Shown here: one piece after another, positions 16,401 through 60,620 of the stretch | How positions within the stretch are numbered: the first letter of the stretch is position 1 | Layout: the number at the start of each line of letters is the position of its first letter | Virus record (IMG/VR): IMGVR_UViG_3300025598_000023 | Coordinates: 32,001 to 96,000 of that record | Reading direction: 5' to 3' (one strand) | Length of the DNA stretch: 64,000 bases | Source of the DNA: a virus | Translations under genes and position numbers: made by a program | Notes under the pieces: model-generated | Database searches by the model: none | Told to the model about the DNA's origin: nothing | Seen by the model: only the letters and a program-made list of their open reading frames with translations

Positions 16401-19400
16401 TGATATCAATAATATCAAATTTATTGATACAGTGTATCGCAGTGGTGCTGCACACATCTATGAATACCAAACACTAAGTGATGAAAACTATTCAAGCTAT
16501 GGAAGTTATGCATATGGAACATTAATTAATGACCAATTTGCAAACAGCTTTGACCGTTATTCAACTGGTGTTGATATTAGCGATAACTTTATTTTAGTTG
16601 GTGCTCCACAAGCAAAAATACTTGGAAACCAAACAGGCGCACTATATGTCTATTACAATCCTAATGCTCAACCAATTTGGCAAAGCATACGCAGCGGTGG
16701 TGTAGATTATGATAGTCGTAAGATTGACCGTGCTTACATTTATAATAGCACAACTGCAAAACTTATTGCAGATTTGCCAGTTTATGATTTAACAAATGGC
16801 TATTTGCCAAATGAAAGTGAGACATATCTTGATTTTGTTATCAACTATGATCCAGCAGTTTATAACAAGGTTCCAACTACAATTAGCTTTAACTATGATC
16901 GTAAAAATGCTTGGGGCAAAGAAAAAGTTGGAAAACTTTGGTGGGATATTAATAGTATAAAATACTATGACAACACACAAGGCTCTACACTTGATAGATT
17001 TAACTATTGGGGATTAGCTTTTCCAGCAAGCACAGTTAATGTGTATGAATGGATTGAAAGTAGTGTTCCGCCAAGTCAATATGTTGGCTCAAGTGCAAAC
17101 AATACTCCACTTTACACTATTAATGAAGTGTATAGTTCACATGTAGAGATTGATAGTGCAACTGGTTTGGCTGTTACAAAGTATTACTTCTGGGTAAAAA
17201 ATAGCACACTAAGTTCTGGTTCACGACCAAGTGCATTGGAAATTCAAGGTCAAATCAGCCTACCTCGTGCAAGCAGTGAACCATTTGCAGCAGTAATATC
17301 ACCAAATGCAATTGCACTATTCAATGCTAAAAATCTAATCAGCATTGATACCAATATGGTTATTGAATATAAAGATGTTCTGAAACCACAGCTAACTCAT
17401 GCCGAATGGACTATGTTTGATGATGGCACAGATTTAGGTGTGGCATATGAGTTCTTGAATAAACTTAATGATAGTCTAACTGGTCAAGATAGTAGCGGTA
17501 GAATTGTTCCTGATCCAAAACTTCCTATTGGTCAACGTTATGGCATGGATGTAAAACTACGTCAAAGTTTATTCAAAGATCAATATACTGGACGCAAGCT
17601 GTTTGTTGAAAATGTAAATCAAGTTTGCACAACATATCCAATGGTTCTTACTCGTGGAGCAGCAATTGCAGCATTGGACAGTTATGATCCAATTCCAGAT
17701 TCAACTCATTATAAAACTGTAGTAGCTAATATTACTGAATTGGGTTATCTTGATACCAATACATATCTTGCTGGTGACCAAGTTCTTGTTTTAAGCGATA
17801 GCAACAGCTATAATAACGGTTGGAGTTTATATAGACTAAATGTTGTATTCCCTAATACTAGAACATGGGAAATTATACAAGTTCAAACTTATAACTTAAA
17901 CAATTATTGGAGTTATGCTGATTGGTATAGCAATCAATATAATCCACAAGCACAACCAAAATATACTGTTACAACAGAAAATGATATTAGCAATTTACAA
18001 CTTAATGTTGGTGATATCATTTATGTTACTAACAGTTCTAATGGAGGTTGGAAACTTGTTCTTGTGACAATTAATAGTCTAGAACTATTAGCTCAGCAAA
18101 ATGCTACAATACAATTTAATACTAATTTGTATGATCTAGTTGCTGCAAACCAAGGATTCCAAACAAGTAGTTTCCAAAGTGTTGGATTTGATAGCGATAG
18201 CAATTTAGAATTTAATAAAATATTCAATATTATTCGTGATGAATTATTAATCAATGAATATCGCAGCAACTTTAAAGATTTAGTAAAACTCATGATTGAT
18301 ACGATTGCTACACAGCATCAGCAAACAGATTGGTTAATGAAGACCAGTCTAGTTGATTTGTATCATCGTGTTCGTGGTTTGGATCAATTACCAGTTTACC
18401 TTCCACAGCCAGAAACTACTGTCACAAGTTTCTTTAGTGAAGTAAAACCATATCACACTAAGCTAAAACAATATATTGCAACATATGATAATACTGATTC
18501 TATTGATGTTGCATACAACAATGTAACTGATTTTGATTTACAACCATATAAAAACAGTGTTGTAAACAAATATCGCAGTCCACAATTAGGCAATAGCTTG
18601 GATACTAACGCTTTAGAAACACAAAGTGTTTATCAACCATGGCTAAACAACCATTCTTATGGCGTTAAACGTGTTGATACAGTCACTGGCGGAGTTGGTT
18701 ATGATGCAAATACCACAGTAACTATTGTTGGTGATGGCACTGGTGCAACAGCACAAGCGTATGTTGTCAATGGCAGTGTTTACACAATTACTGTTACTAA
18801 TAGCGGTGTAGGCTACACTTATGCAAAAGCATATATTTTTGGTGTTGGAACTGGTGCAACAGCTACTGTGATTCTTGGCAATGGATTGGCTCGTACAACA
18901 AACACAATTATTAAGTATGACCGATATACATATTTTAATAATATTCAAGATTGGGCTGCTAATACTTCCTATACTGTAAACACGGTAGTAGTGTATAATG
19001 CTCAACCATACCGTGTTATTACTGCTCATACAAGCGGAACTACATTTGATTCAACTAAGTTTGTGCAACTTGTAGTAAAAGTTTGGTATCCAGAAACACA
19101 ATATGCACTCAATGATGTAGTCATTTATAAAAATACAAGTTATACAGTCAATGAAACATTTACAAGTGCTCTTACATTTGATACAGCCAATTTGACAGCG
19201 TATAACGGTCTATGGCTTGATAATGCATGTGACCGTGTTTGGGCATACTATGCCCCAAAAAGCGGTATGGCTGGTCGCGATTTAGCGCAAGTTATGACTG
19301 GAATGGAGTATAGTGGCAATCAAATTATTGGTCCTAACTTTAATCAAACACCAGGTTATGATGTAAACAATTACGACTACATAGCTTATGATTATGAAAC

Positions 19401-47838: not shown

Positions 47839-48143
47839 TAGTCTAATAATTTGTTTGTTTCTGTTTCAACTTCTTCGGCAATTGCGGTAATATTCAAATG
47901 AAAATCAACACAATCAATGTCATCGGCATTTAATTCAAGATATGCTTCAATTAGTGTTTCAATTTCTTGAAATTCCATACCCTTTTCAAGCATGACTTTA
48001 ATGTCAAAACTATGTGATTGACCATCACTAAAAGATGCGTTAATTGATTTAATAAAACGAATGGGAACATCCGAAATTTCTACTGAAGAAATTAAATGTT
48101 CCCATCTGTTAAAAAATTCATCACTAAAATTAGTATCAGACAC
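47838..48143 (-). CDS. Acidic hypothetical protein
   Basis: 101-aa ORF coupled to DHFR start. Confidence 0.65.
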   Translation of the reverse strand: MSDTNFSDEFFNRWEHLISSVEISDVPIRFIKSINASFSDGQSHSFDIKVMLEKGMEFQEIETLIEAYLELNADDIDCVDFHLNITAIAEEVETETNKLLD

Positions 48144-48843
48144 TGGTCTTGGTCTTAGCAGTCTTGGCTGTTGCTTTCTTTGTAGTAGCCTTTACGACTA
48201 CTGGCTTAGCACTTTGTAGTTCATTAAGCTGCTTCTGCATGCCCTGCATGGTCTTCATCATTTCCATCATAACAGCAGTCATATCTGGCGTAGCGGGTTG
48301 TGCTGATACAGGTGCAACGACAGGTGTTTCAACAGCATTAAGTTTAGCATTTTCTGCTTCAAGATTAATACCAAGTTCATTGGGACGCACACTGTCACTA
48401 ACTACTGCATCTGTTGTTGCAGTCTTTGCAGGATCAGCAAATCCTTGTTGATTTTCCATACGTTCTAGACGTGAAACAGCTTCTGGTCCCTTACCAACTT
48501 GATTTAAAAGTTTAGTAAGCTCATCAAGTCGGATACTGCTTTTGCTATTTGGAGTAACTAAAACATTTGCTGCTGGCACACGTTTTAGATAGTTTTCTGC
48601 ACTTAATGCTTGCAACATATTTTGACCATCTGCCATCATGCGGCGTTCTAGAATATCACGAAACTCATATGCTTGTTGACCTTCGTCACTCTCTAAAACT
48701 CTCATGACATCATCATGATATTTGCTTGGCATGATTTCACTATAAATTACTGCTGCCATATGTTCATCTTCACCAGGTAGCTGGCGTTGAACAATGATAA
48801 CTTTTTTATTGTTGACACTTCCTACGTGTTTAAAAAAACTCAT
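48136..48843 (-). CDS. Hypothetical protein with Lys/Ala/Thr-rich tail
   Basis: 235-aa coupled ORF. Confidence 0.7.
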   Translation of the reverse strand: MSFFKHVGSVNNKKVIIVQRQLPGEDEHMAAVIYSEIMPSKYHDDVMRVLESDEGQQAYEFRDILERRMMADGQNMLQALSAENYLKRVPAANVLVTPNSKSSIRLDELTKLLNQVGKGPEAVSRLERMENQQGFADPAKTATTDAVVSDSVRPNELGINLEAENAKLNAVETPVVAPVSAQPATPDMTAVMMEMMKTMQGMQKQLNELQSAKPVVVKATTKKATAKTAKTKTSV

Positions 48844-49061
48844 TGATTTACTTCCTCTGTAGATGTTTCTGGTGCTGGCTGAGGATTATTAGCAACAATA
48901 AAGGCTTTAACTTTATCGTATACTGCACCTACACTTGAAAGTTCTTCTGCACGAAAAGCACCACGCTGTGCAACTGTTTCTACAATCTGAACCAAGAAAG
49001 CAATATCATTGATTGTTACGCTTGGTGGTGTTGCAGGAACATTAGTAGTTTCGTCTGTCAT
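48840..49061 (-). CDS. Small hypothetical protein
   Basis: GGAG SD; ETVAQRGAFRAEELSSVGAVYDK. Confidence 0.7.
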   Translation of the reverse strand: MTDETTNVPATPPSVTINDIAFLVQIVETVAQRGAFRAEELSSVGAVYDKVKAFIVANNPQPAPETSTEEVNQ

Positions 49062-49079
49062 TATAATCTCCGTTTTTAT

Positions 49080-49085
49080 TATTTA
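49080..49085 (-). promoter_or_regulatory. TAAATA late-promoter-like motif
   Basis: Minus-strand TAAATA just downstream of the terminator and upstream of ATG 49061; heads the run ending in thyA and the sugar genes. Confidence 0.55.
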
Positions 49086-49092
49086 ATATAAT

Positions 49093-49123
49093 AAAAAAGG
49101 CTCCGAAAATTTTTCGGAGCCTT
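49093..49123 (-). terminator. Intrinsic terminator after vWA gene
   Basis: AAGGCTCCGAAAA-t-TTTTCGGAGCCTT inverted repeat with minus-strand U6 tail. Confidence 0.85.
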
Positions 49124-49157
49124 ATAAGATTGGTGCAAGAAGGAACGTAAACCAATC

Positions 49158-50414
49158 TTAATCTTCATAATAGGCATGAACACCAAACGGCGGTTCAATA
49201 GTCTTGTTATACTTGTTATGGATAATCCATACAGTATCACAATAATTTTCATCACCCCAAGAACCAAAGGGTTCACCGTCAGTAAACACGATAAAAAGTT
49301 TAGGTTCAACGCCTTCGTGTTGCATCCACCGCCAATTTACATCAAAGTCAGTTCCGCCAAAACCTTTTGGTTCATAGTTTATAAGTTCATCACCATCAGC
49401 AGTAGTATATTCTTGTGGGTTATGAACTTGTGTATCAAAGCACCAAATCTTAATCTTGTAATCATCATAAGATTGCATGATACCATTGATTTCACTAAAA
49501 AAAGCAGTCAATTGTTCTTGACCAATTGAACCGCTAGTATCGATAGCAATGCAAACATCAATAGCTTGATCCTTACGCATGTTAGGCAGAACAAACCCTT
49601 GCGAGAACATTTTCTTGTTAGGAATAGTCCAAGTGTAATCATTCTTAACAGTAGATTGGATTTGTTGTGTAATGAGTTCACGCCAGTTGATTTTAGGCTG
49701 TGTGAGTTCATTAATCATACGCTTGACATTGCCAGGACAATCGCCAGCGCCAGCACTTTGTGCTGCTGCAAGCATAGCTTCCTTAAACTCGTCTTTAATC
49801 TTTTGGCGTTCTTCTTGTGAAAGTGTAGGACGGCCCTTACCTTCTTTATCACCGTCTTTGTCTTCACCGCCATTGCCATCTTTTTCAGGATCAAGATGGT
49901 CATCAAGCATTTGGTCAAGCAAATCTTCAATGTTAATTTTCTGTGCATTCTTGATCAAGTCTTCATAAACTTGTTCAAAGTTCCAATCATCATACTTGCG
50001 ATCATAAAGAATAGGAAGAACAGTAATACGTTGACCAAGGTTATACTTGATGCAGTCAGCATTTACCACATAGTCCATTGCAATGTTTGCAAGGTCTTTC
50101 TGTTTGCCAATACCACGGTTCATGTGGTCGTAAGCGCAATGAAGCAACTCATGGCAGAACAAAAACATCATTTGATTGGTAGGAAGTTTGAGGATAAAGT
50201 CACTGTTGTAATAAAAGTGACGACCATCAGTAGCCGCAGTGGTCAGCCAGCTATCAGCATTGACCAGTTTGAGCCGCATGGCAAGATTTCCAAAAAACGG
50301 TTGTTTAATTACAAGGGCAATACGAGCCTTGAGAATTGCTTGACGTGCATCATAGTCGACCTTTGGGTCAACCGTATCGGACAGTTTGCCAGCACCTTGT
50401 TTCATCTTAGCCAT
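49158..50414 (-). CDS. Metallopeptidase-like + vWA domain protein (DUF2201-like), MoxR partner
   Basis: TAATDG, CHELLH (HExxH), acidic linker, IAIDTSGSI MIDAS, GGTDF, FTDG. Confidence 0.85.
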   Translation of the reverse strand: MAKMKQGAGKLSDTVDPKVDYDARQAILKARIALVIKQPFFGNLAMRLKLVNADSWLTTAATDGRHFYYNSDFILKLPTNQMMFLFCHELLHCAYDHMNRGIGKQKDLANIAMDYVVNADCIKYNLGQRITVLPILYDRKYDDWNFEQVYEDLIKNAQKINIEDLLDQMLDDHLDPEKDGNGGEDKDGDKEGKGRPTLSQEERQKIKDEFKEAMLAAAQSAGAGDCPGNVKRMINELTQPKINWRELITQQIQSTVKNDYTWTIPNKKMFSQGFVLPNMRKDQAIDVCIAIDTSGSIGQEQLTAFFSEINGIMQSYDDYKIKIWCFDTQVHNPQEYTTADGDELINYEPKGFGGTDFDVNWRWMQHEGVEPKLFIVFTDGEPFGSWGDENYCDTVWIIHNKYNKTIEPPFGVHAYYED

Positions 50415-50439
50415 AATCGTTCTCCAATTTCTATAATCT

Positions 50440-50467
50440 ATAATACCACATTATTGGGGGTTGTCAA
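50440..50467 (-). promoter_or_regulatory. sigma70-type early promoter
   Basis: TTGACA-N16-TATTAT with extended TG, then ATTATAG and GGAGAA SD. Confidence 0.75.
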
Positions 50468-50478
50468 GCATTATTTTT

Positions 50479-50892
50479 TCAAGAAAAAGCCATTATTTGT
50501 TCGAAAATATTGGTTTTATTTAAATTTAAGTCAATATATCCATTAAAACCAACATAATTTGTTGCAATTTTACTTTGGTTTTCACAATTTATTACTATAT
50601 TTTGCTGTAAATATACTTCATTTATTGGAAACATATCTAATTTAATACTGCAAATTTTAACAAATTTATCAGCAATAATTTTATTGTCTTCAATAATTGT
50701 GTCATTTTTCATATCTTTTCCACTAAAATCTATTTTAATTTTTTTGGGAAGATTTACAAATAAACTTTGTTCTACAAACTTTTCACCCGTGGGATTTATC
50801 ACAATATCATCGCCAATAAATTTTACAGTCATTGTTTTATTTTTGACATAGCCAAATTCAAACAAAAATTTTATTTCTACATTATCAAACAT
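50479..50892 (-). CDS. AT-rich hypothetical protein
   Basis: 137-aa ORF overlapping the end of the B12-radical SAM gene. Confidence 0.6.
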   Translation of the reverse strand: MFDNVEIKFLFEFGYVKNKTMTVKFIGDDIVINPTGEKFVEQSLFVNLPKKIKIDFSGKDMKNDTIIEDNKIIADKFVKICSIKLDMFPINEVYLQQNIVINCENQSKIATNYVGFNGYIDLNLNKTNIFEQIMAFS

Positions 50893-52342
50893 TGTTTTTA
50901 ATTAAACTTTCTAGCACAAAATGATTATCAAGGTTATCAACAACATTGTAACCTAGTTTTTTACTGTAATTCATAAGGTCAATCGTCCATTGCGCCCTTA
51001 TTTTTGGTGTACTATTAATAGACGGATTTATCCATTCATTTGGCAAGGGACCAATTTTTGTTATTCCTAATTTTTCTTTATTATTATCTAAAAAAGTATT
51101 TGGGAAAATACCTAATGTCCCACCCCATTGAATTACCAGTGTGTCTTTATACTCAATATGAGTTGCTAACCAATTTTTTATATAGTTAATATGTGTTTGT
51201 GTTTCAGTAATGTATCCAACGATATTAAGTAAAGTAATTTTTATGTTATATTTTTTAGCTTGTTTTAAATAAAAATCTATAGATTCATTAGTAAATTTTT
51301 TACCCATGGCGTATCTAATATCTTCATTTAGATTTTCAACTCCAACACTTAAAACATTTGCACCAGACTTAGCTATTAACTCCCATTCATGTTCACTGCT
51401 TTGAGATATATTTCTAAAAATAAAATATCCAGACCAACTAAAAGAATTATTTGGATTTTTTGTATTATAATTTGCCAATAACTTTAAAAATTTTAAAAAT
51501 TCTTTTTGATTGCCATTAGTCAAACTGTCTTGAAATTTAAAATTTCTTATATTATATTTTTTGTTTTGAATTAACATTTCATTGAATATTTCTTCTGCTT
51601 CTCTCCAGTGAAAGTTTTTCCAATTAGAAATGTAATCACAAAAAGTGCACTTTCTTACACATCCTCTGCTGCCTACTAAAGGCAATATTCTTTTTCTATA
51701 ATTTGCAAAATTATAATCGTCATAATCAGGATACGGTAAACTTCTAACTTCTTCCCTACTCAGTTCTTGCCATGATGGTGTATTAATTCCATTATAATCA
51801 TTGTTACCATTTAAAAGTTCAATAAGTGAACGTTCACCATCGCCGCGAATATGCCAATCAGCTAATTTTTCATTTAGCATAAAATTTACAAATTCACTTG
51901 GACCAGTAAAGGTATCTAAACAGCCAGCACCGCCAATTAATATTTTGATTTTGGGATTGAGTTTTTTAATATAGTATGCTATCCATTTTCCACTTTGCTG
52001 ACAAACATAAGAAAATAGACTTAACCCCACATATTTTGGTTTATAAGAAATAATTTTAGTAGCAATATTTTTAAACAAATTATGTAAAAAATTTGCTGCC
52101 TCATTATCAGCAACACCATCAAAGAAAAATTTTATCAATTCATCTTTTAAAGGATGAATTGTTATTATATTAAATATTTCTATATTAAGATCGATTGCTA
52201 AACAGCTATAACCACATTTTTCAATTATTGGTTTTAGTGCTGCTGGTGCCATCAACGGCAAATTAGTATCAATCCAGGGCACAGTGGTTATAATAAAATC
52301 TATCTTTTTATTTTCGGAATTATCTAAACATTCAATTTTCAT
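50885..52342 (-). CDS. Cobalamin-binding radical SAM protein (class B methyltransferase-like)
   Basis: PLMAPAALK..IDLNI..VGLSLFS..ILIGG..GDGE..LPYPDYDD..GSRGCVRKCTFCD..GVE..VGYITET. Confidence 0.85.
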   Translation of the reverse strand: MKIECLDNSENKKIDFIITTVPWIDTNLPLMAPAALKPIIEKCGYSCLAIDLNIEIFNIITIHPLKDELIKFFFDGVADNEAANFLHNLFKNIATKIISYKPKYVGLSLFSYVCQQSGKWIAYYIKKLNPKIKILIGGAGCLDTFTGPSEFVNFMLNEKLADWHIRGDGERSLIELLNGNNDYNGINTPSWQELSREEVRSLPYPDYDDYNFANYRKRILPLVGSRGCVRKCTFCDYISNWKNFHWREAEEIFNEMLIQNKKYNIRNFKFQDSLTNGNQKEFLKFLKLLANYNTKNPNNSFSWSGYFIFRNISQSSEHEWELIAKSGANVLSVGVENLNEDIRYAMGKKFTNESIDFYLKQAKKYNIKITLLNIVGYITETQTHINYIKNWLATHIEYKDTLVIQWGGTLGIFPNTFLDNNKEKLGITKIGPLPNEWINPSINSTPKIRAQWTIDLMNYSKKLGYNVVDNLDNHFVLESLIKNNV

Positions 52343-52346
52343 TTCT

Positions 52347-52352
52347 TATTTA
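52347..52352 (-). promoter_or_regulatory. TAAATA late-promoter-like motif
   Basis: TAAATA 4 nt before ATG 52342. Confidence 0.5.
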
Positions 52353-52357
52353 CACAC

Positions 52358-52396
52358 TAAAATAGGGGAGAAGTGCTGTGAACACCACCCCCCTAT
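52358..52396 (-). terminator. Probable intrinsic terminator after MoxR gene
   Basis: Minus strand ATAGGGG..CCCCTAT stem followed by TTT. Confidence 0.55.
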
Positions 52397-52398
52397 AG

Positions 52399-52436
52399 TC
52401 TCGCCCTCACTGTGATGGAGAACGATAGGGGCGAGA
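52399..52436 (-). ncRNA. Candidate regulatory hairpin RNA with anti-SD loop
   Basis: 8-bp stem TCTCGCCC/GGGCGAGA enclosing UAUCGUUCUCCAUCA, complementary to four RBS regions in this window. Confidence 0.4.
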
Positions 52437-53561
52437 TTAACGCAATGCAGACATGATGAAGTCACCATTCTTAGCGTGGAATTCTTTATAGTTTGCCAGT
52501 TTACTTGTTTTCATTGGCAGACTATAAACACGGACAAGAGTAGCAATCATCATAACTTGCAATTCTGTATCCATGTGATCAAGGAAGAAACGGATAACAT
52601 TATCAATTTCACCATGCCAAGCAGTGTAGTCGGCATCTTTCATCTTGTCACCGCCGCGACGAACACAGCTATCCTTGAGTTCATAGCAGCATGAGACTGT
52701 AAGAGAATACTTTGCACCAATGTCTTTAGCTTTGAGTTCCTTGATTTTACCAGCAAGAATATCGCTTGGATTTGGCATTTGGCTTGCAACCTTGCGATGT
52801 GCAGAGAATTTAAGTGCAACACCTTCACCAACCGTGCCCGCAACAAGGTCATTCAATTCGGTATCACCAAGGTCTTCTTGCAAAAGGTCGCTAACAAACG
52901 ACCAAGAACGAGGCGTAGCGAATGATGCACCGCTTGAACGTGGGTCAAAGTTGAACAAATCACCTTTGTTACAGGTCACGTAAGCCACAACATCAGGGCT
53001 GATACCATGGTTCAATGCCCATTCATTCCACGACTCAAAGTCAACACGCAAGTTCAAGTGAACAAAACGGTTAGCAAGTGGCGATGGCATACGATACACG
53101 ACACCACGGTCAGTATCACGGTTACCAGCGGCAACGATAACAACATTGTCAGGAAGTTCATAAGTGCCGACACGACGATTAAGAACCAATTGATATGCGG
53201 CAGCTTGAGTTGCAGGTGCAGCAGAGTTCATTTCGTCGAGGAAAAGCACCACAACAGGATACTTTGCGGCTTCCTCGGCAGTAGGCAAATCAGGCGGTGC
53301 ATTCCACATCGCATTACCCACGGTAGGATTGTAGTAGAGAACACCCTTAAGATCGGAAGGGTCCATAAGTGCAAGACGCAAGTCATACAACTTGCCGCCC
53401 ATGCTTTCGCAAATATCAGCAACCAATTCAGACTTGCCGATACCAGGCGCACCCCACAAGAAGATTGGGCGCTTACGCTTCATACATACCATAATTTCAC
53501 GCTTAGCAGATGCAAGCGTAACTGTCCGCACTTCGGACACAGCATCATTAACTTTAGCCAT
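52437..53561 (-). CDS. MoxR-like AAA+ ATPase
   Basis: WGAPGIGKS Walker A; LFLDEMNSA Walker B; AAGNR; PLANRFVH; ATPRSW. Confidence 0.9.
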   Translation of the reverse strand: MAKVNDAVSEVRTVTLASAKREIMVCMKRKRPIFLWGAPGIGKSELVADICESMGGKLYDLRLALMDPSDLKGVLYYNPTVGNAMWNAPPDLPTAEEAAKYPVVVLFLDEMNSAAPATQAAAYQLVLNRRVGTYELPDNVVIVAAGNRDTDRGVVYRMPSPLANRFVHLNLRVDFESWNEWALNHGISPDVVAYVTCNKGDLFNFDPRSSGASFATPRSWSFVSDLLQEDLGDTELNDLVAGTVGEGVALKFSAHRKVASQMPNPSDILAGKIKELKAKDIGAKYSLTVSCCYELKDSCVRRGGDKMKDADYTAWHGEIDNVIRFFLDHMDTELQVMMIATLVRVYSLPMKTSKLANYKEFHAKNGDFIMSALR

Positions 53562-53591
53562 TTGTTTTCTCCATCAGTTGACTATAATATT

Positions 53592-53619
53592 AATATAACA
53601 GATTATTCTTGGTTGTCAA
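53592..53619 (-). promoter_or_regulatory. sigma70-type early promoter
   Basis: TTGACA-N16-TATATT (TGT extended), ATTATAG, GGAGAA SD. Confidence 0.75.
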
Positions 53620-54295
53620 GCACTTTTTTTGTCTCTAAAAGTGGCTGAACCTTCATTTTAATCCGCACATAATGCAGACGTGTTTTGCTGTCCTCATCAT
53701 GTTTATGGATGCGGGCTGTCAAAATAATGACACTTCCACGCTCAAATTTTTCGGCAAACGGAAATAACACAAGGCAGTTATCTTCTGTCAGTCCAGTATG
53801 ATACCACTTGTTATAATTATAGCTAAAAACTGCCGAAATAATGGTGATTTTTCCTTCAAAATTATCACCTACTTTGCCAAAATGTCGGCTATTTGCTTGC
53901 AAAGTATTAATTTCATCACGTGCATTTTCACGAGCAATAGCATTTTTATATGAGCTTGGAACACTAGCAATTAGTGCTAAAGTCTTGTAATCATTAGCTA
54001 AAAATTCTTTCTGTTCAGTCAATAGAACCAAATTTCGCCAATAATCGTGCAATGTGCCGCCAATAAGTTCAAACATTTTACCATCAAGATATTCAATAAT
54101 TTGTTCAGCACTTTCAATATCTTGTGGCAAAGCATTAACGTGTTCAATTTCAGGATTAAGGATATCACGCATCAATGCACCGTTGCTTTCCTCCCCCTTT
54201 TCTTTGTCAGCTTCATAGCGTTTGATATAACGACCATTAATTCGTTGTGCCGCACAAGCAGCAGAAATAGCGTCTTTTAAGGTAATATTAGTCAT
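53603..54295 (-). CDS. Hypothetical protein, possible C-terminal OB-fold
   Basis: 230 aa; C-terminal beta-rich G.VG..TRLHYV pattern; ATGA-coupled to the ArfA-like ORF. Confidence 0.65.
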   Translation of the reverse strand: MTNITLKDAISAACAAQRINGRYIKRYEADKEKGEESNGALMRDILNPEIEHVNALPQDIESAEQIIEYLDGKMFELIGGTLHDYWRNLVLLTEQKEFLANDYKTLALIASVPSSYKNAIARENARDEINTLQANSRHFGKVGDNFEGKITIISAVFSYNYNKWYHTGLTEDNCLVLFPFAEKFERGSVIILTARIHKHDEDSKTRLHYVRIKMKVQPLLETKKVLDNQE

Positions 54296-54408
54296 TTTGC
54301 ACCTTTATGCTTGTTTTTACGGCTATAGCTACCCTTGCCCTTACGGGGGGTGACAATTTTTTGACGATATTTGGGGTCCGCAAGTGACTTTGCAATAAGG
54401 CTACGCAT
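54292..54408 (-). CDS. ArfA-like alternative ribosome-rescue peptide (38 aa, not in ORF track)
   Basis: Hand-translated MRSLIAKSLADPKYRQKIVTPRKGKGSYSRKNKHKGAK*; own promoter, GGAGAA SD, ATGA overlap with next gene; matches the ArfA core LxDPxFRQ..KGKGSYxRKxKH. Confidence 0.7.
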   Translation of the reverse strand: MRSLIAKSLADPKYRQKIVTPRKGKGSYSRKNKHKGAK

Positions 54409-54432
54409 CGCTAGTTCTCCATCTATAATGCT

Positions 54433-54460
54433 AATTTAGCATATTTTTGGGATTTGTCAA
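54433..54460 (-). promoter_or_regulatory. sigma70-type early promoter
   Basis: TTGACA-N16-TAAATT (TGC extended), ATTATAG, GGAGAA SD. Confidence 0.72.
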
Positions 54461-54837
54461 CCTAAAATTTCAATAGCTTGGCGTAAATTTCCATCGCACA
54501 TAGCCAAAATTGTGGATAATTCTGTATCCATTAGGAATAATTCCCCACTGCTCATTTTCAAAAACCACGGGAATTTATGATATCGATCCATTAATACTAG
54601 TTCTTTACCATTTATTTGATACTTTTTCTTATCAATAAAGTGCTTATGAAAAGTATAACCAGCATTTGTTAATAGTTCAAATGAAGTATTGTTTAGCCTA
54701 AACCCAAAGTTTTTATTATTATGATACCAATATAGAACATAGATGTTTTTTAAATTAGGATTTGGTATAGGCGCGTCTGCACCGTGAGCAAAGTGGTATA
54801 ATTCGTGTGTCCAATCAGTTTTTGATTTATCTATCAT
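54457..54837 (-). CDS. Hypothetical protein
   Basis: 126-aa coupled ORF. Confidence 0.65.
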   Translation of the reverse strand: MIDKSKTDWTHELYHFAHGADAPIPNPNLKNIYVLYWYHNNKNFGFRLNNTSFELLTNAGYTFHKHFIDKKKYQINGKELVLMDRYHKFPWFLKMSSGELFLMDTELSTILAMCDGNLRQAIEILG

Positions 54838-55127
54838 TTTGTGGGATAAACAGCAGCACCACTGTTCAATAGCACAACACTAAAACGGTTTGTCTTGAAT
54901 TGTGCATTTAACTTTTTACATAAATTGATTGCATGACCAGGATTTGAAAAACTAGACTTCTTATACTTTGGTCCGCTATATTGTGCTAACATACTGGTAG
55001 TTTTAAGATTTACTGGTTTATTATCCAAGAAAATTGCCCAAATGCCTTCACTAGCCAGAACTTGCTCTGACTTATATGTTTGCTTATTTGTAATTTCAAG
55101 CAGTACTTGAGGCTTCGGTCTTGACAT
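54834..55127 (-). CDS. Conserved jumbo-phage hypothetical protein
   Basis: MSRPKP..GPKYKKSSFSNPGHAINL..KLN motif recalled from large myoviruses. Confidence 0.7.
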   Translation of the reverse strand: MSRPKPQVLLEITNKQTYKSEQVLASEGIWAIFLDNKPVNLKTTSMLAQYSGPKYKKSSFSNPGHAINLCKKLNAQFKTNRFSVVLLNSGAAVYPTK

Positions 55128-55146
55128 AGTTGATAATCTTACAGTA

Positions 55147-55152
55147 TATTTA
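55147..55152 (-). promoter_or_regulatory. TAAATA late-promoter-like motif
   Basis: Intergenic minus-strand ATAAATA upstream of ATG 55127. Confidence 0.55.
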
Positions 55153-55168
55153 TCGGTTCGAATCGATC

Positions 55169-55390
55169 TTAAAAATCTTTCCCTACCATTTCTACTTGAA
55201 TAACATTACTGTTTAATAGATTTTCTTCTAATTCAGCAACTTTACTTTCAAGTTGCAAAACATAACCGAGCAAATCTACGAGTTCACTTTGCACTTTTCG
55301 CAATTCATCATTATCAATAACTTGTTTACCAACAGCCATAGTAACACGATTATTAAATTCACGAATATAATGGGTATTAGGCGGTCTCAC
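55169..55390 (-). CDS. Small coiled-coil hypothetical protein
   Basis: 73-aa ORF overlapping the upstream gene. Confidence 0.6.
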   Translation of the reverse strand: MRPPNTHYIREFNNRVTMAVGKQVIDNDELRKVQSELVDLLGYVLQLESKVAELEENLLNSNVIQVEMVGKDF

Positions 55391-55853
55391 TATTGCAAAT
55401 CCTTAAACGTTCTTGTTGTTCGAGTTTAGTCTTGAATGGACCCTCATACTCATATCGTTGTAATGTAATAAGTTTTGGTGTAAATTCTGGGACATACACT
55501 TTGTTATATTTTATGATATAATATCCAGCACAAAAGTATGAACTACTTTTGCTGTTTTTAGTATAGATAGGAAGTTTAAGTTTTACATTCCATAAGATAT
55601 TGTGTGGCGTATGGTTTGTGGGAAAGTCATAAACCATGTTTTCTACAGTAGTTTTTGCTTCACGACTACGACGAACAAACGTAATTCCCTTTTCAGCAAT
55701 CATTTGTTGCATGTCTGGAAAAATTTCTACACTATCTTCCATAGTGCAGCGAACACCACTTGTTGTTTGCGCAATGTTTCCAATGCGCTCGCCACGATCA
55801 TTTTCAATAATCCAAAAACGATTTTCTACGATGTTTTTAGCTTTGAGACTCAT
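55377..55853 (-). CDS. Conserved hypothetical protein
   Basis: LPIYTKNSKSSSYFCAGYY..PKLITLQRY..GPFKT. Confidence 0.7.
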   Translation of the reverse strand: MSLKAKNIVENRFWIIENDRGERIGNIAQTTSGVRCTMEDSVEIFPDMQQMIAEKGITFVRRSREAKTTVENMVYDFPTNHTPHNILWNVKLKLPIYTKNSKSSSYFCAGYYIIKYNKVYVPEFTPKLITLQRYEYEGPFKTKLEQQERLRICNSETA

Positions 55854-56055
55854 TTTCTGTAATCCTTATGACAGTATTCGAAAGTTTATCATATTTGCTA
55901 CGCATTTCCAAATATGAAATCCATCCAAGCGTAGCAGCAATATAAATTCCAGTTTCTTTGTAATCAGTAAAAAATGAATTTACAGTTAAAATTCCAAAAG
56001 CTACAAGCATCATCCAAGGTATAACAACATCAAAAATTTTTAAAAATTTATCCAT
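55837..56055 (-). CDS. Small membrane protein (2 TM)
   Basis: GGAG SD before ATG 56055; two hydrophobic segments. Confidence 0.55.
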   Translation of the reverse strand: MDKFLKIFDVVIPWMMLVAFGILTVNSFFTDYKETGIYIAATLGWISYLEMRSKYDKLSNTVIRITENESQS

Positions 56056-57046
56056 AAGAAGTCTCCATAAGAGGTTTAGCCAAAATATCGGCAATGGGTT
56101 GAACATTTTCAGAAAGTTTTACAAGTTCCCATTTACTGCAGAACTTGATTAGTTGACTGCCAATTTGACGATTGCTCTTGGGCTGAACTTGTAACAGTGC
56201 AGCATCAATAGCATCACGTATTTCTTGTGGTTGTGCAGTCAAATCTACAAGGATACGGTTTTCTTCATACCGATCAAGCACACGGTGTTCTACGCCTTCA
56301 TGATCTACCCAACGCTGTAGCATCATGTTATTCCATGCCCAACCACGTTTTTCACGGTCGGCAAAGGCTTCTACAAGACCAACTTTTTTGGTGCTGCCTT
56401 TAGTGCGAACACCAGGATAAGCAGTCATAATATTATCAGTTGGATCACCACGCATGCATTTTTCAAATAGTACAAACTTAGGGTCACCAACTGTTTTGGG
56501 TGCTTTAGTTTTACTATCAACAACTACTTTCCCGTTATCGTCAAAATAACCTTGCAAAGTAATATGTTGATTTGTCAACCCATTGTAAATGCTGACATTT
56601 TCAGCAAGCAGTTGGTGGAAGTCACTGTCATTGCTTAGTATAATATGTTCATCTTGTGGATGAAGTGCAATCCAACGAGCAATAATATCATCGGCTTCTG
56701 CACGTGCAACCTTGATTACACTGCAATTTGTTTTGTCATTAACCCAATTAGTAAAGTCCTCATAGGCTTTCCAAAACTCTGCATCTTCTTCTGCTTCACG
56801 TGCAGTCATTTTACTTTTAATAACCGCACGATTTGCTTTATAAGTGCCTTTGTGATCCTTGCGCCAACTACGGCTTTCAAGGGCAAAAATAACATGGTCA
56901 GGCTTATGCAACCGATTTACCTTTTGAATAACGTTAAAGGTAATATGCAGTGCAAGCCCAATTTTCTGCCAAGTATCCGTTCCACGATTTGTGGAGTGAC
57001 GGGCACGTGAGAACAGATTAGCTGTATCAACGAGAAGATATTTCAT
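56048..57046 (-). CDS. rnh: T4 RNase H-like 5'-3' exonuclease
   Basis: LLVDTANL, SWRK..YKANR, EADDIIA, SNDSDFHQL, GDPTDNI. Confidence 0.88.
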   Translation of the reverse strand: MKYLLVDTANLFSRARHSTNRGTDTWQKIGLALHITFNVIQKVNRLHKPDHVIFALESRSWRKDHKGTYKANRAVIKSKMTAREAEEDAEFWKAYEDFTNWVNDKTNCSVIKVARAEADDIIARWIALHPQDEHIILSNDSDFHQLLAENVSIYNGLTNQHITLQGYFDDNGKVVVDSKTKAPKTVGDPKFVLFEKCMRGDPTDNIMTAYPGVRTKGSTKKVGLVEAFADREKRGWAWNNMMLQRWVDHEGVEHRVLDRYEENRILVDLTAQPQEIRDAIDAALLQVQPKSNRQIGSQLIKFCSKWELVKLSENVQPIADILAKPLMETSYG

Positions 57047-57052
57047 AATACC

Positions 57053-57081
57053 AATATAATATCTGGAGTTTATTTTGTCAA
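57053..57081 (-). promoter_or_regulatory. sigma70-type promoter (leaderless geometry)
   Basis: TTGACA-N17-TATATT; ATG 57046 lies 7 nt after the -10; no SD. Confidence 0.72.
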
Positions 57082-57084
57082 GGG

Positions 57085-57525
57085 TTATTTAAATTCACTT
57101 AAACCATTACCGATATCGGTTCTAGTGACATAACGGGTATTATCCAAATTAGGTGGATTTTGCTCATTGGTTCGTATGATATTACGTGCCACATCATTAA
57201 GCCATGCATCTACAAGGTCTTCGGGATTAACACCACGGTAGCCAGCAGAACGCAACATTTCAATAAATTCTGCGTTCCAATCTAACTCCATGCTACCCAT
57301 GCTTGGATTTTGTGGATCAAAGTCAAATCCAAGCACAGTAACACGTGGTTCTACTTTTTTAGGTTCTTCTTTTTTAACTCGTGGATTGCGAGTTTTTTTA
57401 GGTTTTGGTTCACTGCTAGTTTTAGTAACGGCTGATGGTGCGCTTTCTGTAATTACAGAAGAGGCGTCAGCGGTTTTGTTAATTTCATTATTTGATTTAC
57501 CAAATAGTTTGTCGAATATTCCCAT
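57085..57525 (-). CDS. Conserved hypothetical protein
   Basis: MGIFDKLFGK amphipathic N-terminus; EPRV..ELDWNAEFI..GY.G..VDAW. Confidence 0.7.
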   Translation of the reverse strand: MGIFDKLFGKSNNEINKTADASSVITESAPSAVTKTSSEPKPKKTRNPRVKKEEPKKVEPRVTVLGFDFDPQNPSMGSMELDWNAEFIEMLRSAGYRGVNPEDLVDAWLNDVARNIIRTNEQNPPNLDNTRYVTRTDIGNGLSEFK

Positions 57526-57533
57526 GTTTCACC

Positions 57534-57845
57534 TTATTGGTTTGGCACACGATAACAGTGGCGTTCCACACCAAGAAAATTACCATAGCGGTCAAAAACT
57601 TGCTCACGGCGACACTCTGTGTGATAATAATTTTCATCATCATAACGAGGCTGATTTGCAATAGCACCGCCAACAATTCCACCGATAATAAGACCACCAA
57701 TAAGTGGTGCAACCCAATTACCACCACCGCCACTATGATAGCCAGGACGTGGACCTTCATAACGACGATCACGCCATTGTGCATTTGCTGACGTTGCAGA
57801 AATTAATGTAGTAGCTGCGAGTAGGATAGCTAATGTCTTACGCAT
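57534..57845 (-). CDS. Secreted glycine-zipper protein (alphaproteobacterial type)
   Basis: Signal peptide MRKTLAILLAATTLISATSANA; GGLIIGGIVGGAIA; C-terminal C..C pair; GGAGAA SD before ATG 57845. Confidence 0.7.
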   Translation of the reverse strand: MRKTLAILLAATTLISATSANAQWRDRRYEGPRPGYHSGGGGNWVAPLIGGLIIGGIVGGAIANQPRYDDENYYHTECRREQVFDRYGNFLGVERHCYRVPNQ

Positions 57846-57870
57846 TTGGGTTCTCCAATGAACTATAACC

Positions 57871-57898
57871 AATATAACATATTTATGGGGTTTGTCAA
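57871..57898 (-). promoter_or_regulatory. sigma70-type early promoter
   Basis: TTGACA-N16-TATATT (TGT extended), TTATAG, GGAGAA SD. Confidence 0.75.
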
Positions 57899-57901
57899 GA
57901 G

Positions 57902-58135
57902 TTAATTTAAGTATGGACGGTATTTTGCTTCAAAATCTGCAATATAGCGTTTTGCACTGGATTTTAGGACAATTTTCTCATCTTCCATGCCTTCTGGCAT
58001 TTCTGTTCCAAGATACTCATATAATTCACGTGCTTCAACATAATTTTTACCATTTTGAGTTTCTTGTTGAATATATTTCAAGATCAAATATTCTATTTCT
58101 TCTTCTGTTAGATCAAATTCTTCTTGGCTATCCAT
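57902..58135 (-). CDS. Small acidic hypothetical protein
   Basis: 77-aa ORF in coupled run. Confidence 0.55.
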   Translation of the reverse strand: MDSQEEFDLTEEEIEYLILKYIQQETQNGKNYVEARELYEYLGTEMPEGMEDEKIVLKSSAKRYIADFEAKYRPYLN

Positions 58136-58388
58136 TTGCGACCTGCAATAATGTTATGTAAATTTTCCATGCTTCTTCAAGCGATGGGTGTTGTTTTTGA
58201 AGTGTTTTTTGTTTTGCATAAGGAATGTTAAAAAATAAACTATCGTCACAATCTGGAAGTGCGTTGTCGACCCAAACTAACAAACCTTGTTTGCGAGCAT
58301 TAGCAAAGTTTTGCCAACCTACACTATCCCGTGGAATAGCCCGTCCTGTATCATACTCAAAATCATATTCGTATTGAGTGCTGCTCAC
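58128..58388 (-). CDS. Hypothetical protein
   Basis: 86-aa ORF in coupled run. Confidence 0.55.
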   Translation of the reverse strand: MSSTQYEYDFEYDTGRAIPRDSVGWQNFANARKQGLLVWVDNALPDCDDSLFFNIPYAKQKTLQKQHPSLEEAWKIYITLLQVANG

Positions 58389-58681
58389 CTATTACTTATC
58401 ACATATAGAGTAATGATTTCACTTAATCGTTCACCGAAATTTTCACCCTCGTTGATAACATGCAGTTCATTCATATAACGATCTTTACGATCATCATATC
58501 GTTGAAACTCTAAAATATAACCACCATTGGCAACATGCAATTTCATATTGATACCATTAGCATCAATTCTATCTGGATTGCGTAATTTATTACTTTCAAC
58601 GGTCAGTATGTTACTTTCTTGGTTAGCTGTATCCCAAGCCTTTTTTGTTTGTTTAAGGAACCATCGATCAAACCATTTCAT
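58385..58681 (-). CDS. Hypothetical protein
   Basis: 98-aa ORF, ANGGYILEF..YD motif, coupled at both ends. Confidence 0.65.
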   Translation of the reverse strand: MKWFDRWFLKQTKKAWDTANQESNILTVESNKLRNPDRIDANGINMKLHVANGGYILEFQRYDDRKDRYMNELHVINEGENFGERLSEIITLYVISNR

Positions 58682-58986
58682 ACTTCTAAACCATCCTTTG
58701 GAAAAAATTTTAACTTCATAGCAGCATAAGTTCCCGCTTCTTCATTTTTAAAAATTATTTGAACTTTGTCTAAACCACAAGTTGAAAAAAAGAAATCTTC
58801 GTTATATTTGTAACCCGCTTCACCTAACGCATTACTAATAATACAAGCAGCCTCTACATCACGATAATTTGCATTAAGCGCACCACCTTCTACATAATCA
58901 CCTGGTCCAAATGAATAACTATTTGATACAGGTCGCTGTGTTAGTGATGAACTTGGAAAATCAAGTATTAAGGGTTTTTTTGACAT
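58678..58986 (-). CDS. Hypothetical protein
   Basis: 102-aa coupled ORF. Confidence 0.6.
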   Translation of the reverse strand: MSKKPLILDFPSSSLTQRPVSNSYSFGPGDYVEGGALNANYRDVEAACIISNALGEAGYKYNEDFFFSTCGLDKVQIIFKNEEAGTYAAMKLKFFPKDGLEV

Positions 58987-59252
58987 TGATATAATAACAT
59001 AAAATAACTTGTATTTTCTTCATTTGTAAACAAAACACTTACATTCTGATTATCATAATATTGATCTGTCCAATAATAATCAACACCATGTTTTAACCCG
59101 TGTTCTTGAAATAATTCTTTTAGTAGATACATGGTTTGTGTTCGTTCGTTCCAAGTTTTAGATTTATATTTTTCATCTGTAGTTTTTATTGGAAACTTTG
59201 CTGTATTTTTATTTAAAGTTTCTTCATAACTATGGTATGTAGGCACTGGCAA
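58968..59252 (-). CDS. Hypothetical protein (possible paralog of next gene downstream)
   Basis: 94-aa ORF sharing a GxKxxxD..FxNEE pattern. Confidence 0.5.
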   Translation of the reverse strand: MPVPTYHSYEETLNKNTAKFPIKTTDEKYKSKTWNERTQTMYLLKELFQEHGLKHGVDYYWTDQYYDNQNVSVLFTNEENTSYFMLLYQCQKNP

Positions 59253-59263
59253 AGTTCCACTAA

Positions 59264-59485
59264 TTAGTGAGCGTTTCCGATTTGTTTTTCGTCAAAGAGT
59301 CGTGCATCCACATCCCAATTGTTTGGGATTTTTTCACCACGCCGCACTCGTTCAAATTGCGAGTACGCGTGAGTGTTACGCTTATAAAGATCGGCTTCGT
59401 TAAAAACAAAGCCATATTCCACACAAAAAGCCTTGAAATTATCAAGGTCGTTAAAAACACGATTTACATTCTGGTTCTTAATCAT
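59264..59485 (-). CDS. Small conserved hypothetical protein
   Basis: VFNDLDNFKAFCVEYGFVFNEADLY. Confidence 0.65.
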   Translation of the reverse strand: MIKNQNVNRVFNDLDNFKAFCVEYGFVFNEADLYKRNTHAYSQFERVRRGEKIPNNWDVDARLFDEKQIGNAH

Positions 59486-59542
59486 TTACATTTCCGTTGT
59501 ATTAGAGTTACATGATATGGACTTGCCAGTGCCACAATTCCC

Positions 59543-59570
59543 AATATACAGCAAACTTATGGTTTGTCAA
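59543..59570 (-). promoter_or_regulatory. sigma70-type promoter
   Basis: TTGACA-N16-TATATT. Confidence 0.65.
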
Positions 59571-59892
59571 CTACTTTTTTATCGTTATTTTCCAATAACT
59601 TATTAAAGTGATCGATTGCCGCTTGAAGTTTAGGAATATCTTCCCTAGCCACAAGCACATCATCCCAAACTAAATCTGCACCAAAAATATACTTTAGCGC
59701 AGCCCAAACTCGCTTGTAAAATGGACGGTAATTTACAGCCTGAATATTAACAATAAAGTCTGGCGTATATGGCATTTCATTGCCCCAATCATACACTTGG
59801 ACAACAATAGTATGTTCAGCACTACTGCATTCACACGAAAGAAATACTTTTAGGTCGTCGTGCTTTACTGTAATATCTTCAATATTGCTCAT
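59557..59892 (-). CDS. Hypothetical protein
   Basis: CECSSAEH..FYKRVWAALKYIFG; coupled to clamp gene. Confidence 0.65.
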   Translation of the reverse strand: MSNIEDITVKHDDLKVFLSCECSSAEHTIVVQVYDWGNEMPYTPDFIVNIQAVNYRPFYKRVWAALKYIFGADLVWDDVLVAREDIPKLQAAIDHFNKLLENNDKKVVDKP

Positions 59893-60620
59893 TATTTTGC
59901 CTTTGCTGGCAGTAGATACTCATATGTAATTAAACCACTATTGACAACAACCTTGGCAACACCATCATCACTGAACTCAACAGTCTTGTCACCTTGCAGA
60001 TTAAGAATGCTGATAAACAATCCAACTGGCCAAGCCCAACCTTTTGTTAATGTTCCCGTAACATCACTTTGGAATACAAAATTACCAGCATGTGTAGAAA
60101 CATCACCAAAGAAGAATTTTAAGTTGGTGCCTTCTGTTTTGGCAACAAACATCTTTTCTTCACTATTTGCCTGCGACTGGAACTTGAGGCGTTGAATGCT
60201 ACCAACTGATGGTTCAAATGTAATACCAAAGTTTGCACCACGGAACTTAACAGTTTTCAACTTTTCATTAATAACTTCTGTAGTCATAAAACGATAGTCG
60301 TTCTTAAAATCACCACCAGCGTTTTCAAAGTGAATACCAACAGGAGTTTGTGCGCCATTGCGTTGTTCACGCTTAAGTTCAATTGTTGCGTCACTTGCAT
60401 ATTCTGGAATATTAAGCACAGTGTTTAACTTGCTCAAGTTTGGCATACCAAAAATACCAGCAAAATCTGGATTTACTTCATTAAATTTAGCATTAAGAAT
60501 TACTGAACGGTCTTCGGTAACGCTTTCAATTTTAGTTTCATTGGCATCGCCAGTGACCTTAACTACATCAATTCCAGTAGGAAGTGTGTGTTGAACAATA
60601 TCTGTGAGAAAGTCTTTCAT
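59892..60620 (-). CDS. Putative sliding clamp (gp45-like DNA polymerase accessory protein)
   Basis: 242 aa, two-domain beta-rich pattern, C-terminal YEYLLPA, next to DNA polymerase. Confidence 0.55.
   Translation of the reverse strand: MKDFLTDIVQHTLPTGIDVVKVTGDANETKIESVTEDRSVILNAKFNEVNPDFAGIFGMPNLSKLNTVLNIPEYASDATIELKREQRNGAQTPVGIHFENAGGDFKNDYRFMTTEVINEKLKTVKFRGANFGITFEPSVGSIQRLKFQSQANSEEKMFVAKTEGTNLKFFFGDVSTHAGNFVFQSDVTGTLTKGWAWPVGLFISILNLQGDKTVEFSDDGVAKVVVNSGLITYEYLLPAKAK

Follow-up and report, generated by a model that had tools for sequence, protein, structure and literature searches.

A putative self-targeting anti-ribosome-binding-site element in the 3′ untranslated region of a phage MoxR gene

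The MoxR gene and its 3′ untranslated region

The window analysed here is a stretch of 64,000 nucleotides (nt) with a G+C content of 35.7%, positions 32001-96000 of the single virus contig IMGVR_UViG_3300025598_000023 (111,324 bp; about 33% of a genome according to CheckV). Its minus strand carries a gene for a MoxR-like AAA+ ATPase, and the element considered in this report is a small hairpin directly behind the stop codon of this gene, the loop of which is complementary to the same gene's ribosome-binding site (RBS). The locus contains the following features.

52437-53561, minus strand: MoxR-like AAA+ ATPase gene, 374 amino acids (aa); matches to Pfam AAA, AAA_3 and AAA_5 above cut-offs, bpMoxR below its cut-off
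52437-52439, minus strand: stop codon (TAA) of the MoxR gene
53592-53619, minus strand: MoxR promoter, TTGACA, 16-nt spacer, TATATT, with TG extension; 11 of 12 positions match, and it is kept in relatives
53562-53585, minus strand: predicted MoxR 5′ leader of about 24 nt, AUAGUCAACUGAUGGAGAAAACAA, which includes the Shine-Dalgarno (SD) sequence; transcription start inferred from the position of the -10 element
53567-53576, minus strand: MoxR RBS segment UGAUGGAGAA, exact complement of the loop over 10 nt
52399-52436, minus strand: hairpin 1 (sequence and RNAfold), stem of 8 GC-rich base pairs (52429-52436/52399-52406) and loop of 22 nt (52407-52428)
52413-52426, minus strand: anti-RBS core of the loop, AUCGUUCUCCAUCA; 52413-52422 pairs with the MoxR leader and 52416-52426 with the leader of the vWA gene
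52362-52396, minus strand: hairpin 2 (RNAfold), a terminator-like GC-rich stem-loop, AUAGGGGGG...CUCCCCUAU
52357-52361, minus strand: short U-run past hairpin 2 (UUUAG; 3-4 U); 5-8 U in relatives

Read on the minus strand, the stop codon is followed by T-CTCGCCC, the loop CTATCGTTCTCCATCACAGTGA (CUAUCGUUCUCCAUCACAGUGA as RNA), GGGCGAG-A, the second GC-rich hairpin and the short U-run. The fold predicted by RNAfold for a 106-nt stretch consisted of exactly hairpins 1 and 2, with a minimum free energy of -37 kcal/mol and a z value of -3.1 against shuffled sequences. An initial annotation of the window had described hairpin 1 with the same 8-bp stem and 22-nt loop, and both the sequence and the RNAfold prediction agree with that description. 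It had also called the next hairpin terminator-like. The stem of hairpin 2 is indeed strong, but its U-run (UUUU(AG) only) is short and the terminator scan made no call. The MoxR promoter is located 30 nt upstream of the ATG and the terminator-like hairpin follows the tail element; both transcript ends are predicted ones. A permissive scan of 48000-60000 with Rfam 15 gave nothing at 52358-52436 and two far-sub-threshold chance matches elsewhere.

Several other readings of this region were rejected. Hairpin 1 does not seem to be a plus-strand open reading frame (ORF) or promoter, since the ATG present in the relatives with a short loop is missing in the window. Relatives have indels of 1-4 nt between the stop codon and the stem, which excludes read-through or a coding constraint. 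A pseudoknot between the loop and the terminator (CAUCAC/GUGGUG) was dismissed by eye, as it would comprise 6 bp only and is not conserved. An extension of the pairing by the ACUAUA linker to UAUAGU of the leader was dismissed as well, because relatives have TTATA, ATAATA or ATAACG at this position.

Complementarity of the loop to ribosome-binding sites in the window

The interaction between the loop and the MoxR leader has a net predicted energy of -10.8 kcal/mol, opening costs included. The loop also matches the leaders of the following three genes.

50416-50426, minus strand: leader of the vWA/DUF2201 gene, UGGAGAACGAU; 11-nt loop match, candidate secondary target
54414-54423, minus strand: leader of the ArfA-like gene, GAUGGAGAAC; 10-nt loop match (8-11 nt in relatives), candidate secondary target
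57850-57857, minus strand: leader of the gene for a glycine-zipper-like secreted protein, UGGAGAAC; 8-nt loop match, the weakest candidate target

All four loop-complementary segments are located just upstream of an ATG. The exact complementarity over 11, 10, 10 and 8 nt that the initial annotation had reported for these SD regions was found at each of the positions it gave, and the promoter scan confirmed its placement of the four genes under sigma70 promoters with a 16-bp spacer. These promoters have the form TTGACA-16 nt-TAnnnT with a TG extension and start at 50467, 53619, 54460 and 57898 on the minus strand. The "TATAG" box near the SD sequence lies at or past the predicted transcription start and is not the -10 element; therefore, the leaders would be only about 20-26 nt long. 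TTATAG is conserved at the predicted transcription start of this repeated promoter-leader cassette. Strong promoters of the sigma70 type that lack the loop-complementary motif are also present in the window, for example at 60669, 59570 and 57081.

The candidate secondary targets differ in detail. The CGAU extension of the match in the vWA leader is not kept among relatives. Pairing of the loop with the ArfA-like leader can be extended to the start codon across a 4-nt bulge. The ArfA-like gene, a name given in the initial annotation, is a 38-codon ORF (MRSLIAKSLADPKYRQKIVTPRKGKGSYSRKNKHKGAK; 54292-54408, minus strand) with its own early promoter. The glycine-zipper-like protein has 103 aa (57534-57845, minus strand), and by eye it seems to have a signal peptide and a glycine-rich segment (GGLIIGGIVGGAIA); a Pfam search with a slightly longer version of this ORF gave no match.

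In a chance test, the loop was set against the RBS windows of the 108 genes found in the window by rough calling. Three RBS windows matched the loop over at least 10 nt, compared with an average of 0.03 for fully shuffled loops, none of 400 of which reached three. The excess persisted when TTCTCC was held fixed (P ~0.0025). The P value rose to ~0.03 (0.03-0.06 for the flank matches) when the 8-mer GTTCTCCA was kept in full. The within-genome excess thus outlasts removal of the SD core, yet the signal is moderate, and much of it is due to the 8-mer common to the four leaders.

Conservation in close relatives

Related loci were collected by a MoxR protein scan of IMG/VR (36 loci) and a metagenome scan, which added 80 more from over 500 candidate stretches. 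The names of the related contigs refer to bog and lake samples, as in TBL_comb48_EPIDRAFT. Of the relatives with 85-95% MoxR identity, all whose sequence extends beyond the stop codon (about 60) have hairpin 1 in almost unchanged form. Their stem is CTCGCCC/GGGCGAG, and their loop is (C)ATCGTTCTCCATCA(CA)GTGA. The mean pairwise identity among 22 unique relatives was 0.88 for hairpin 1, 0.64 for third positions in the 50 codons at the end of MoxR and 0.62 for the terminator. When two variant loci were left out (20 unique sequences), 28 of 36 columns were invariant in hairpin 1, compared with 6 of 50 third positions. The terminator hairpin of the relatives varies in sequence, length and even number, with its stem pairing retained as judged by eye. 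These comparisons indicate that hairpin 1, loop included, is under purifying selection. The stem in lineage A, to which the window belongs, is invariant and hence offers no covariation to score. A scan of IMG/VR with the pattern CTCGCCC..CTCCATC..GGGCGAG gave, outside this clade, only high-GC and seemingly coding matches, which were taken as chance; therefore, the lineage-A hairpin is considered to be clade-specific.

The other partner of the proposed pairing is also stable in the alignment: the MoxR leader TTATAGTCAACTGATGGAGAA is nearly invariant in the relatives, and the promoter spacer is variable. The common short-loop form of the hairpin is complementary to the MoxR leader over 12 contiguous nt (ACUGAUGGAGAA), and this is the longest match in most loci. 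Within 13 kb, the loci of the relatives contain 4-7 copies of the promoter-leader cassette TTGACA..TATATT..TTATAGTCAAT-TGATGGAGA... In a complete relative of 338 kb, GATGGAGAA has eight copies, one in the hairpin and the other seven in RBS leaders of cassette genes distributed genome-wide; the reversed control pattern has one occurrence there. One of the cassette gene leaders of this relative gives a 12-nt loop match.

A different situation is seen in locus L034. Its variant loop, CGTCTCCATC, is tracked by a changed ArfA-like leader, GATGGAGACG, and its MoxR leader retains only GATGGAGA (8 nt). This joint change of loop and ArfA-like leader is a single event and could be due to chance, at an estimated probability of 0.1-0.25.

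It should be mentioned that one contig, represented by L021, L037 and L084, ends at about 7130-7245 in a fold-back, in which the hairpin and the terminator are followed by the hairpin and the MoxR 3′ end in reverse complement. This end was not taken as biological; misassembly at the terminator palindrome is its most likely cause.

Joint change of leader and tail in distant lineages

In distant MoxR lineages (52-69% identity), leader and 3′ untranslated region (3′UTR) both differ in sequence from those described above, and their complementarity is retained. The pairs are listed below by locus, together with that of the nearer L087.

L087, 83% MoxR identity: leader TTGATGATGGAG; loop CTCCATCATCAA on a different stem, TGCCCCC/GGGGGCA
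Lineage B, L088 and L091-L093, 66-69%: leader TGGAGGTGCC; loop GGCACCTCCA
Lineage B, L089 and L090, 66-67%: leader TTGGAGGTGC; tail GCACCTCCAA
L108, 57%: leader GAAAGGAGTA; tail TACTCCTTTC
L032, L033 and L154, 56%: leader CTCACAGGAA; tail TTCCTGTGAG, 2 nt past the stop codon
Clade F, L116, 55%: leader GAACACAGCCC; tail GGGCTGTGTTC
Clade F, L136, L140, L145 and L149, 52-53%: leader AACACAGCCC; tail is the complement of the leader segment
Clade F, L144, 52%: leader AACACAGCCATG; tail CATGGCTGTGTT
Clade F, L132, 53%: leader AAACATAGCCAT; tail ATGGCTATGTTT

The positions of the two partners fall in the same ranges throughout: in all cases, the leader segment overlaps -21 to +3 and the antisense segment is located 2-35 nt past the stop codon. 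The net predicted energies for leader and tail, calculated from the duplex and the opening of both partners, range from -7 to -15 kcal/mol. The antisense segment is predicted to be in a loop in lineage A, L087, lineage B and L108, and largely or partly paired within a stem in L032 and clade F. The paired segment in lineages E and F is mostly outside the GGAG/SD core. In the stem of lineage B, one double and three single compensatory changes were found among five sequences. Two leader changes within clade F, the deletion of one base and a C-to-T substitution, each have a counterpart in the tail.

Clade F shows a further peculiarity. In the first 45 nt past the MoxR stop codon of L116, L136, L144 and L132, the antisense segment forms the tip of the terminator stem, paired there with a short leader copy that the tail also contains, as in ACACAG..CTGTGT. 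The tail in this clade therefore holds a leader mimic as well as an anti-leader; in L132, these two sites have changed jointly with the leader itself.

Gene specificity and distribution

The 136 loci with a complete MoxR gene were reduced to 92 unique leader/tail pairs and further to 46 lineages. Complementarity of at least 10 nt to the own leader was found in 8 of the 46 lineages, compared with 9 of 2070 non-cognate pairs (0.43%). This corresponds to a binomial P of ~3e-11; the lineages of the tree are not fully independent, and the case rests, beyond this P value, on at least five unrelated sequence solutions and on coupled changes within three of them. By duplex energy, seven lineages lie under the 1% quantile of the non-cognate pairs, against an expectation of 0.5. 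As a control, other genes of the same loci with a downstream spacer of at least 40 nt were compared in the same way, their starts being taken from a crude gene caller; a match of at least 10 nt to the own downstream region occurred in 1 of 397. In lineages B, E and F, the only leader within the locus that matches over at least 10 nt is that of MoxR itself. The one predicted target retained in every element-bearing lineage is the RBS of MoxR.

On the MoxR protein tree, the feature fills whole clades: lineage A with L087, L034, lineage B, L094 and L032; clade F with L127; and L108 with L101 and L107. The rest of the tree, roughly half of it, lacks the feature. In the cultured phages PA5oct, Phosso and Ecwhy_1, no match between leader and 3′UTR was found, the longest complementary run being 4-5 nt.

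Taken together, these results support the view that the loop is a selected and conserved antisense element directed at ribosome-binding sites. The initial annotation had named conservation of the loop, covariation and shuffled controls as checks of its proposal. The loop proved to be nearly invariant in close relatives, loop and leader covary across lineages (the stem of lineage A itself being invariant), and the complementarity exceeds the controls even with the SD core held fixed (P ~0.0025).

Proposed function

The 3′UTR of MoxR in these lake phages is thus likely to hold a self-targeting anti-RBS element, which would pair with the RBS of its own gene and limit translation. We infer a transcript that would carry both leader and tail, and a repression of its translation by their pairing. 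The GC-clamped hairpin right after the stop codon would present its loop to the SD region in the 5′ leader of the same gene; this pairing, once the 3′UTR has been made, would block binding of the 30S subunit and cap the synthesis of MoxR. Two routes can be considered. The full-length MoxR messenger RNA (mRNA) might fold back on itself, in a manner similar to icaR. Alternatively, a stable tail fragment comprising the hairpin and the terminator might accumulate and act on new MoxR messages, a negative feedback similar to those of OppZ and CarZ. The sequence alone does not separate action in cis from action in trans, and fold-back in cis is equally possible.

The MoxR leader is a copy of the repeated promoter-leader cassette; therefore, the loop should also be able to reach the mRNAs of the vWA, ArfA-like and glycine-zipper genes. 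In this lineage, 4-7 early genes could also be targets of the loop. These extra cassette targets may be real secondary targets or by-products. Some of the lineage-A observations lean towards an added component in trans, namely the 11-nt match to vWA, the 12-nt match in the 338-kb relative, the changes in L034 and the pairing across the bulge in the ArfA-like leader.

Several observations weigh against the proposed self-targeting. The element is missing from about half of the MoxR tree and from PA5oct, Phosso and Ecwhy_1; therefore, MoxR as such does not require it. In L034, it is the ArfA-like leader that changed along with the loop; the MoxR leader did not, and 8 nt of its complementarity are left. 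The long-loop variant found in the window pairs better with the vWA leader (11 nt) than with that of MoxR (10 nt). The 5′ part of the loop, CAUCG, is unpaired with the MoxR leader and is also invariant, which suggests further constraints such as other targets or a protein. Finally, the U-run at the terminator-like hairpin of the window is weak.

A wider and much more tentative proposal is that such private, programmable pairs of an RBS tag and a 3′UTR anti-tag form a built-in translational governor of these uncultured T4-type jumbo phages. The message would be translated while being made, and would lock once the tail has been transcribed or tail fragments have accumulated. Since the antisense segment starts 2-35 nt past the stop codon, the lock could be undone by ribosomes in the course of termination, and the messages that stay on would be those under active translation only. 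In lineage A, the tag would have spread with the cassette, and one tail could co-govern a small early regulon. Its members would include the ArfA-like peptide, for ribosome rescue, and vWA as the partner of MoxR.

Alternative explanations

The initial annotation had favoured a stable small RNA (sRNA) derived from the 3′UTR, acting mainly in trans on early mRNAs that share a GGAGAA leader, as a timed early shut-off in which MoxR is one target. This explanation fits the matches of the loop to four cassette leaders in the window and the 338-kb relative, where all seven non-self copies of GATGGAGAA are in cassette RBS leaders, with one match of 12 nt and a single occurrence of the reversed control. 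The L034 loop, whose best match is the ArfA-like leader that changed along with it, points in the same direction, as does the possible pairing between the ArfA-like start region and the invariant 5′ part of the loop. The layout of hairpin and terminator is also like that of known 3′UTR-derived sRNAs (PMC7398697). However, lineages B, E and F match only the own leader of MoxR. The motif is missing at several strong early promoters in the window, and therefore there is no general early class. The flank matches are only modestly significant with the 8-mer core fixed (P 0.03-0.06), and L034 is a single lineage with a chance estimate of 0.1-0.25. What stands of the proposed silencing of an early mRNA class through a shared leader is a small class of cassette genes within reach of the loop, in which only the MoxR target is kept across lineages. 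The class-wide early-to-late switch that had been proposed on this basis is not supported in that form, given the lineages that match MoxR only and the strong promoters at 60669, 59570 and 57081 without the motif. An action mainly in trans is accordingly a possible explanation, but an unlikely one.

The pairing of the two ends might instead be protective or positive, in that it shields the leader or the SD sequence from nucleases (a RegB-like enzyme or decay dependent on the 5′ end) or stabilizes the mRNA. A precedent is the hbs mRNA of B. subtilis, in which an interaction between the 5′- and 3′-UTRs controls the access of RNase (PMC5737220), and the GGAGAAC leaders fit the first seven positions of the RegB consensus GGAGRAYARAA (PMC3014915). 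A duplex on the SD sequence or the start codon would, however, have to compete with binding of the ribosome, and in lineages E and F most of the pairing is outside GGAG. RegB (PF10715) was found neither in the fragment nor in the 338-kb relative, a weak argument because the control genomes gave no match either. A protective role is considered to be improbable.

Since complementarity on the same strand is equivalent to an inverted repeat in the DNA, the two segments could also be repeats flanking MoxR, either an operator in both orientations or the trace of an inversion or mobility event. The recurrence of the 9-mer motif at other promoters is operator-like. On the other hand, the repeat sequence is wholly different between lineages, and sites of a protein or recombinase would be conserved. 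The copy on the left is always on the RBS or start codon, that on the right in a predicted RNA hairpin past the stop codon (in the loop in lineages A and B). MoxR is inverted relative to its promoter in none of the 136 loci, and repeats of 10-12 bp are short for recombination. These points make an explanation at the DNA level very improbable.

Chance, with the hairpin as a 3′ stabilizer beside the terminator and the matches as ordinary CUCC/GGAG complementarity, can practically be dismissed: CUCC is frequent in pyrimidine-rich loops and the within-genome excess is modest with the 8-mer fixed, but the difference between cognate and non-cognate pairs (P ~3e-11), the 1 of 397 for other genes, the pairing of lineages E and F mostly outside the SD core and the conservation of the loop sequence, not of the stem alone, all oppose it.

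Comparison with known regulatory systems

The closest counterpart of the proposed self-targeting element is icaR of S. aureus, in which a UCCCCUG motif of the 3′UTR pairs with the own SD region; according to Ruiz de los Mozos et al. 2013 (PMC3868564), this pairing blocks the initiation complex and lowers protein output, and the duplex is cut by RNase III. In the MoxR 3′UTR, likewise, a segment is complementary to the SD/RBS region of the same gene, over 10 nt in the window; the complementarity extends to 12 nt in most relatives. The element differs in that it belongs to a phage gene with a short 3′UTR, about 85 nt here compared with more than 100 nt for icaR. The antisense segment of MoxR is also longer (10-12 nt), and in lineages A and B it is the loop of a GC-clamped hairpin 1-10 nt past the stop codon. 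Furthermore, covariation has preserved the MoxR element in many lineages whose sequences differ. The relation between icaR and the MoxR tail is thus one of functional analogy and not of homology.

OppZ and CarZ of Vibrio cholerae are autoregulatory sRNAs derived from 3′UTRs; they are described by Hoyos et al. 2020 (PMC7398697) as processed by RNase E, associated with Hfq and experimentally shown. The MoxR tail resembles them in having a stem-loop at the 3′ end together with a terminator-like stem and in being complementary to the translation start region of its own transcript. It differs from these experiment-backed, processed sRNAs, as it does from icaR, in being known from its sequence alone.

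Phage devices directed at RBSs are also known. The immunity RNAs c4 of phage P1 and CI of phage P4 are cut from the transcription unit of their own target, and their exposed segments pair with a downstream RBS or leader. They are located upstream of their targets in the immunity regions of temperate phages and act on a neighbouring gene, affecting transcription termination. In contrast, the MoxR element is in the 3′UTR of a T4-type, lytic-looking jumbo phage and would target the gene in front of it. RegB of T4 cuts GGAG in early SD regions with the consensus GGAGRAYARAA and is blocked by secondary structure (PMC3014915). Like the MoxR element as proposed here, it is a phage device directed at the SD regions of some early mRNAs, and the GGAGAAC leader resembles GGAGRAY. 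RegB is a protein nuclease, whereas the MoxR element is an RNA complement that is gene-specific in most lineages.

Very few cases are known in which the 3′UTR of a bacterial mRNA pairs with its own RBS; the authors of the icaR study call theirs a singular example (PMC3868564). No phage example of such pairing was found in the literature. The MoxR tail element would be a further form of this rare regulation, covarying and self-targeting, with a probable spill-over onto a few early genes in the present lineage. Several lineages in which head and tail are entirely different and yet complementary provide about the strongest evidence for an RNA-RNA contact that can be obtained by sequence comparison. 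These lineages also represent a natural set of orthogonal tag/anti-tag pairs. The finding suggests that the dosage of MoxR matters to these phages, and that short phage 3′UTRs should be read as possible regulators, beyond terminators.

Neighbouring genes and other observations

Two annotated genes follow MoxR.

50885-52342, next downstream of MoxR: radical-SAM/B12-binding gene, 485 aa, with a small ORF after it
49158-50414, downstream of the small ORF: DUF2201 metallopeptidase/vWA gene

The radical-SAM/B12 gene and the small ORF (50479-52352) separate the MoxR terminator from the vWA promoter. Most relatives have the vWA promoter cassette directly after the MoxR terminator; therefore, these two reading frames are a lineage-specific insertion. 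The start of the radical-SAM/B12 gene is preceded by TAAATA, with neither an SD sequence nor a promoter of the sigma70 type at this position.

A megablast search of 50000-54500 against INPHARED gave no match, and the protein search revealed no close cultured relative, the best identity being 46% (PA5oct group). A transfer RNA scan across the window found none. Among the largest ORFs of the contig is a single one of 4665 codons on the plus strand (7456-21453). The 5′-3′ exonuclease gene on the minus strand has a strong TTGACA-17-TATATT promoter at 57046-57081, the -10 element of which ends 7 nt before the ATG (TATATTGGTATTATG); its mRNA is probably leaderless or nearly so.
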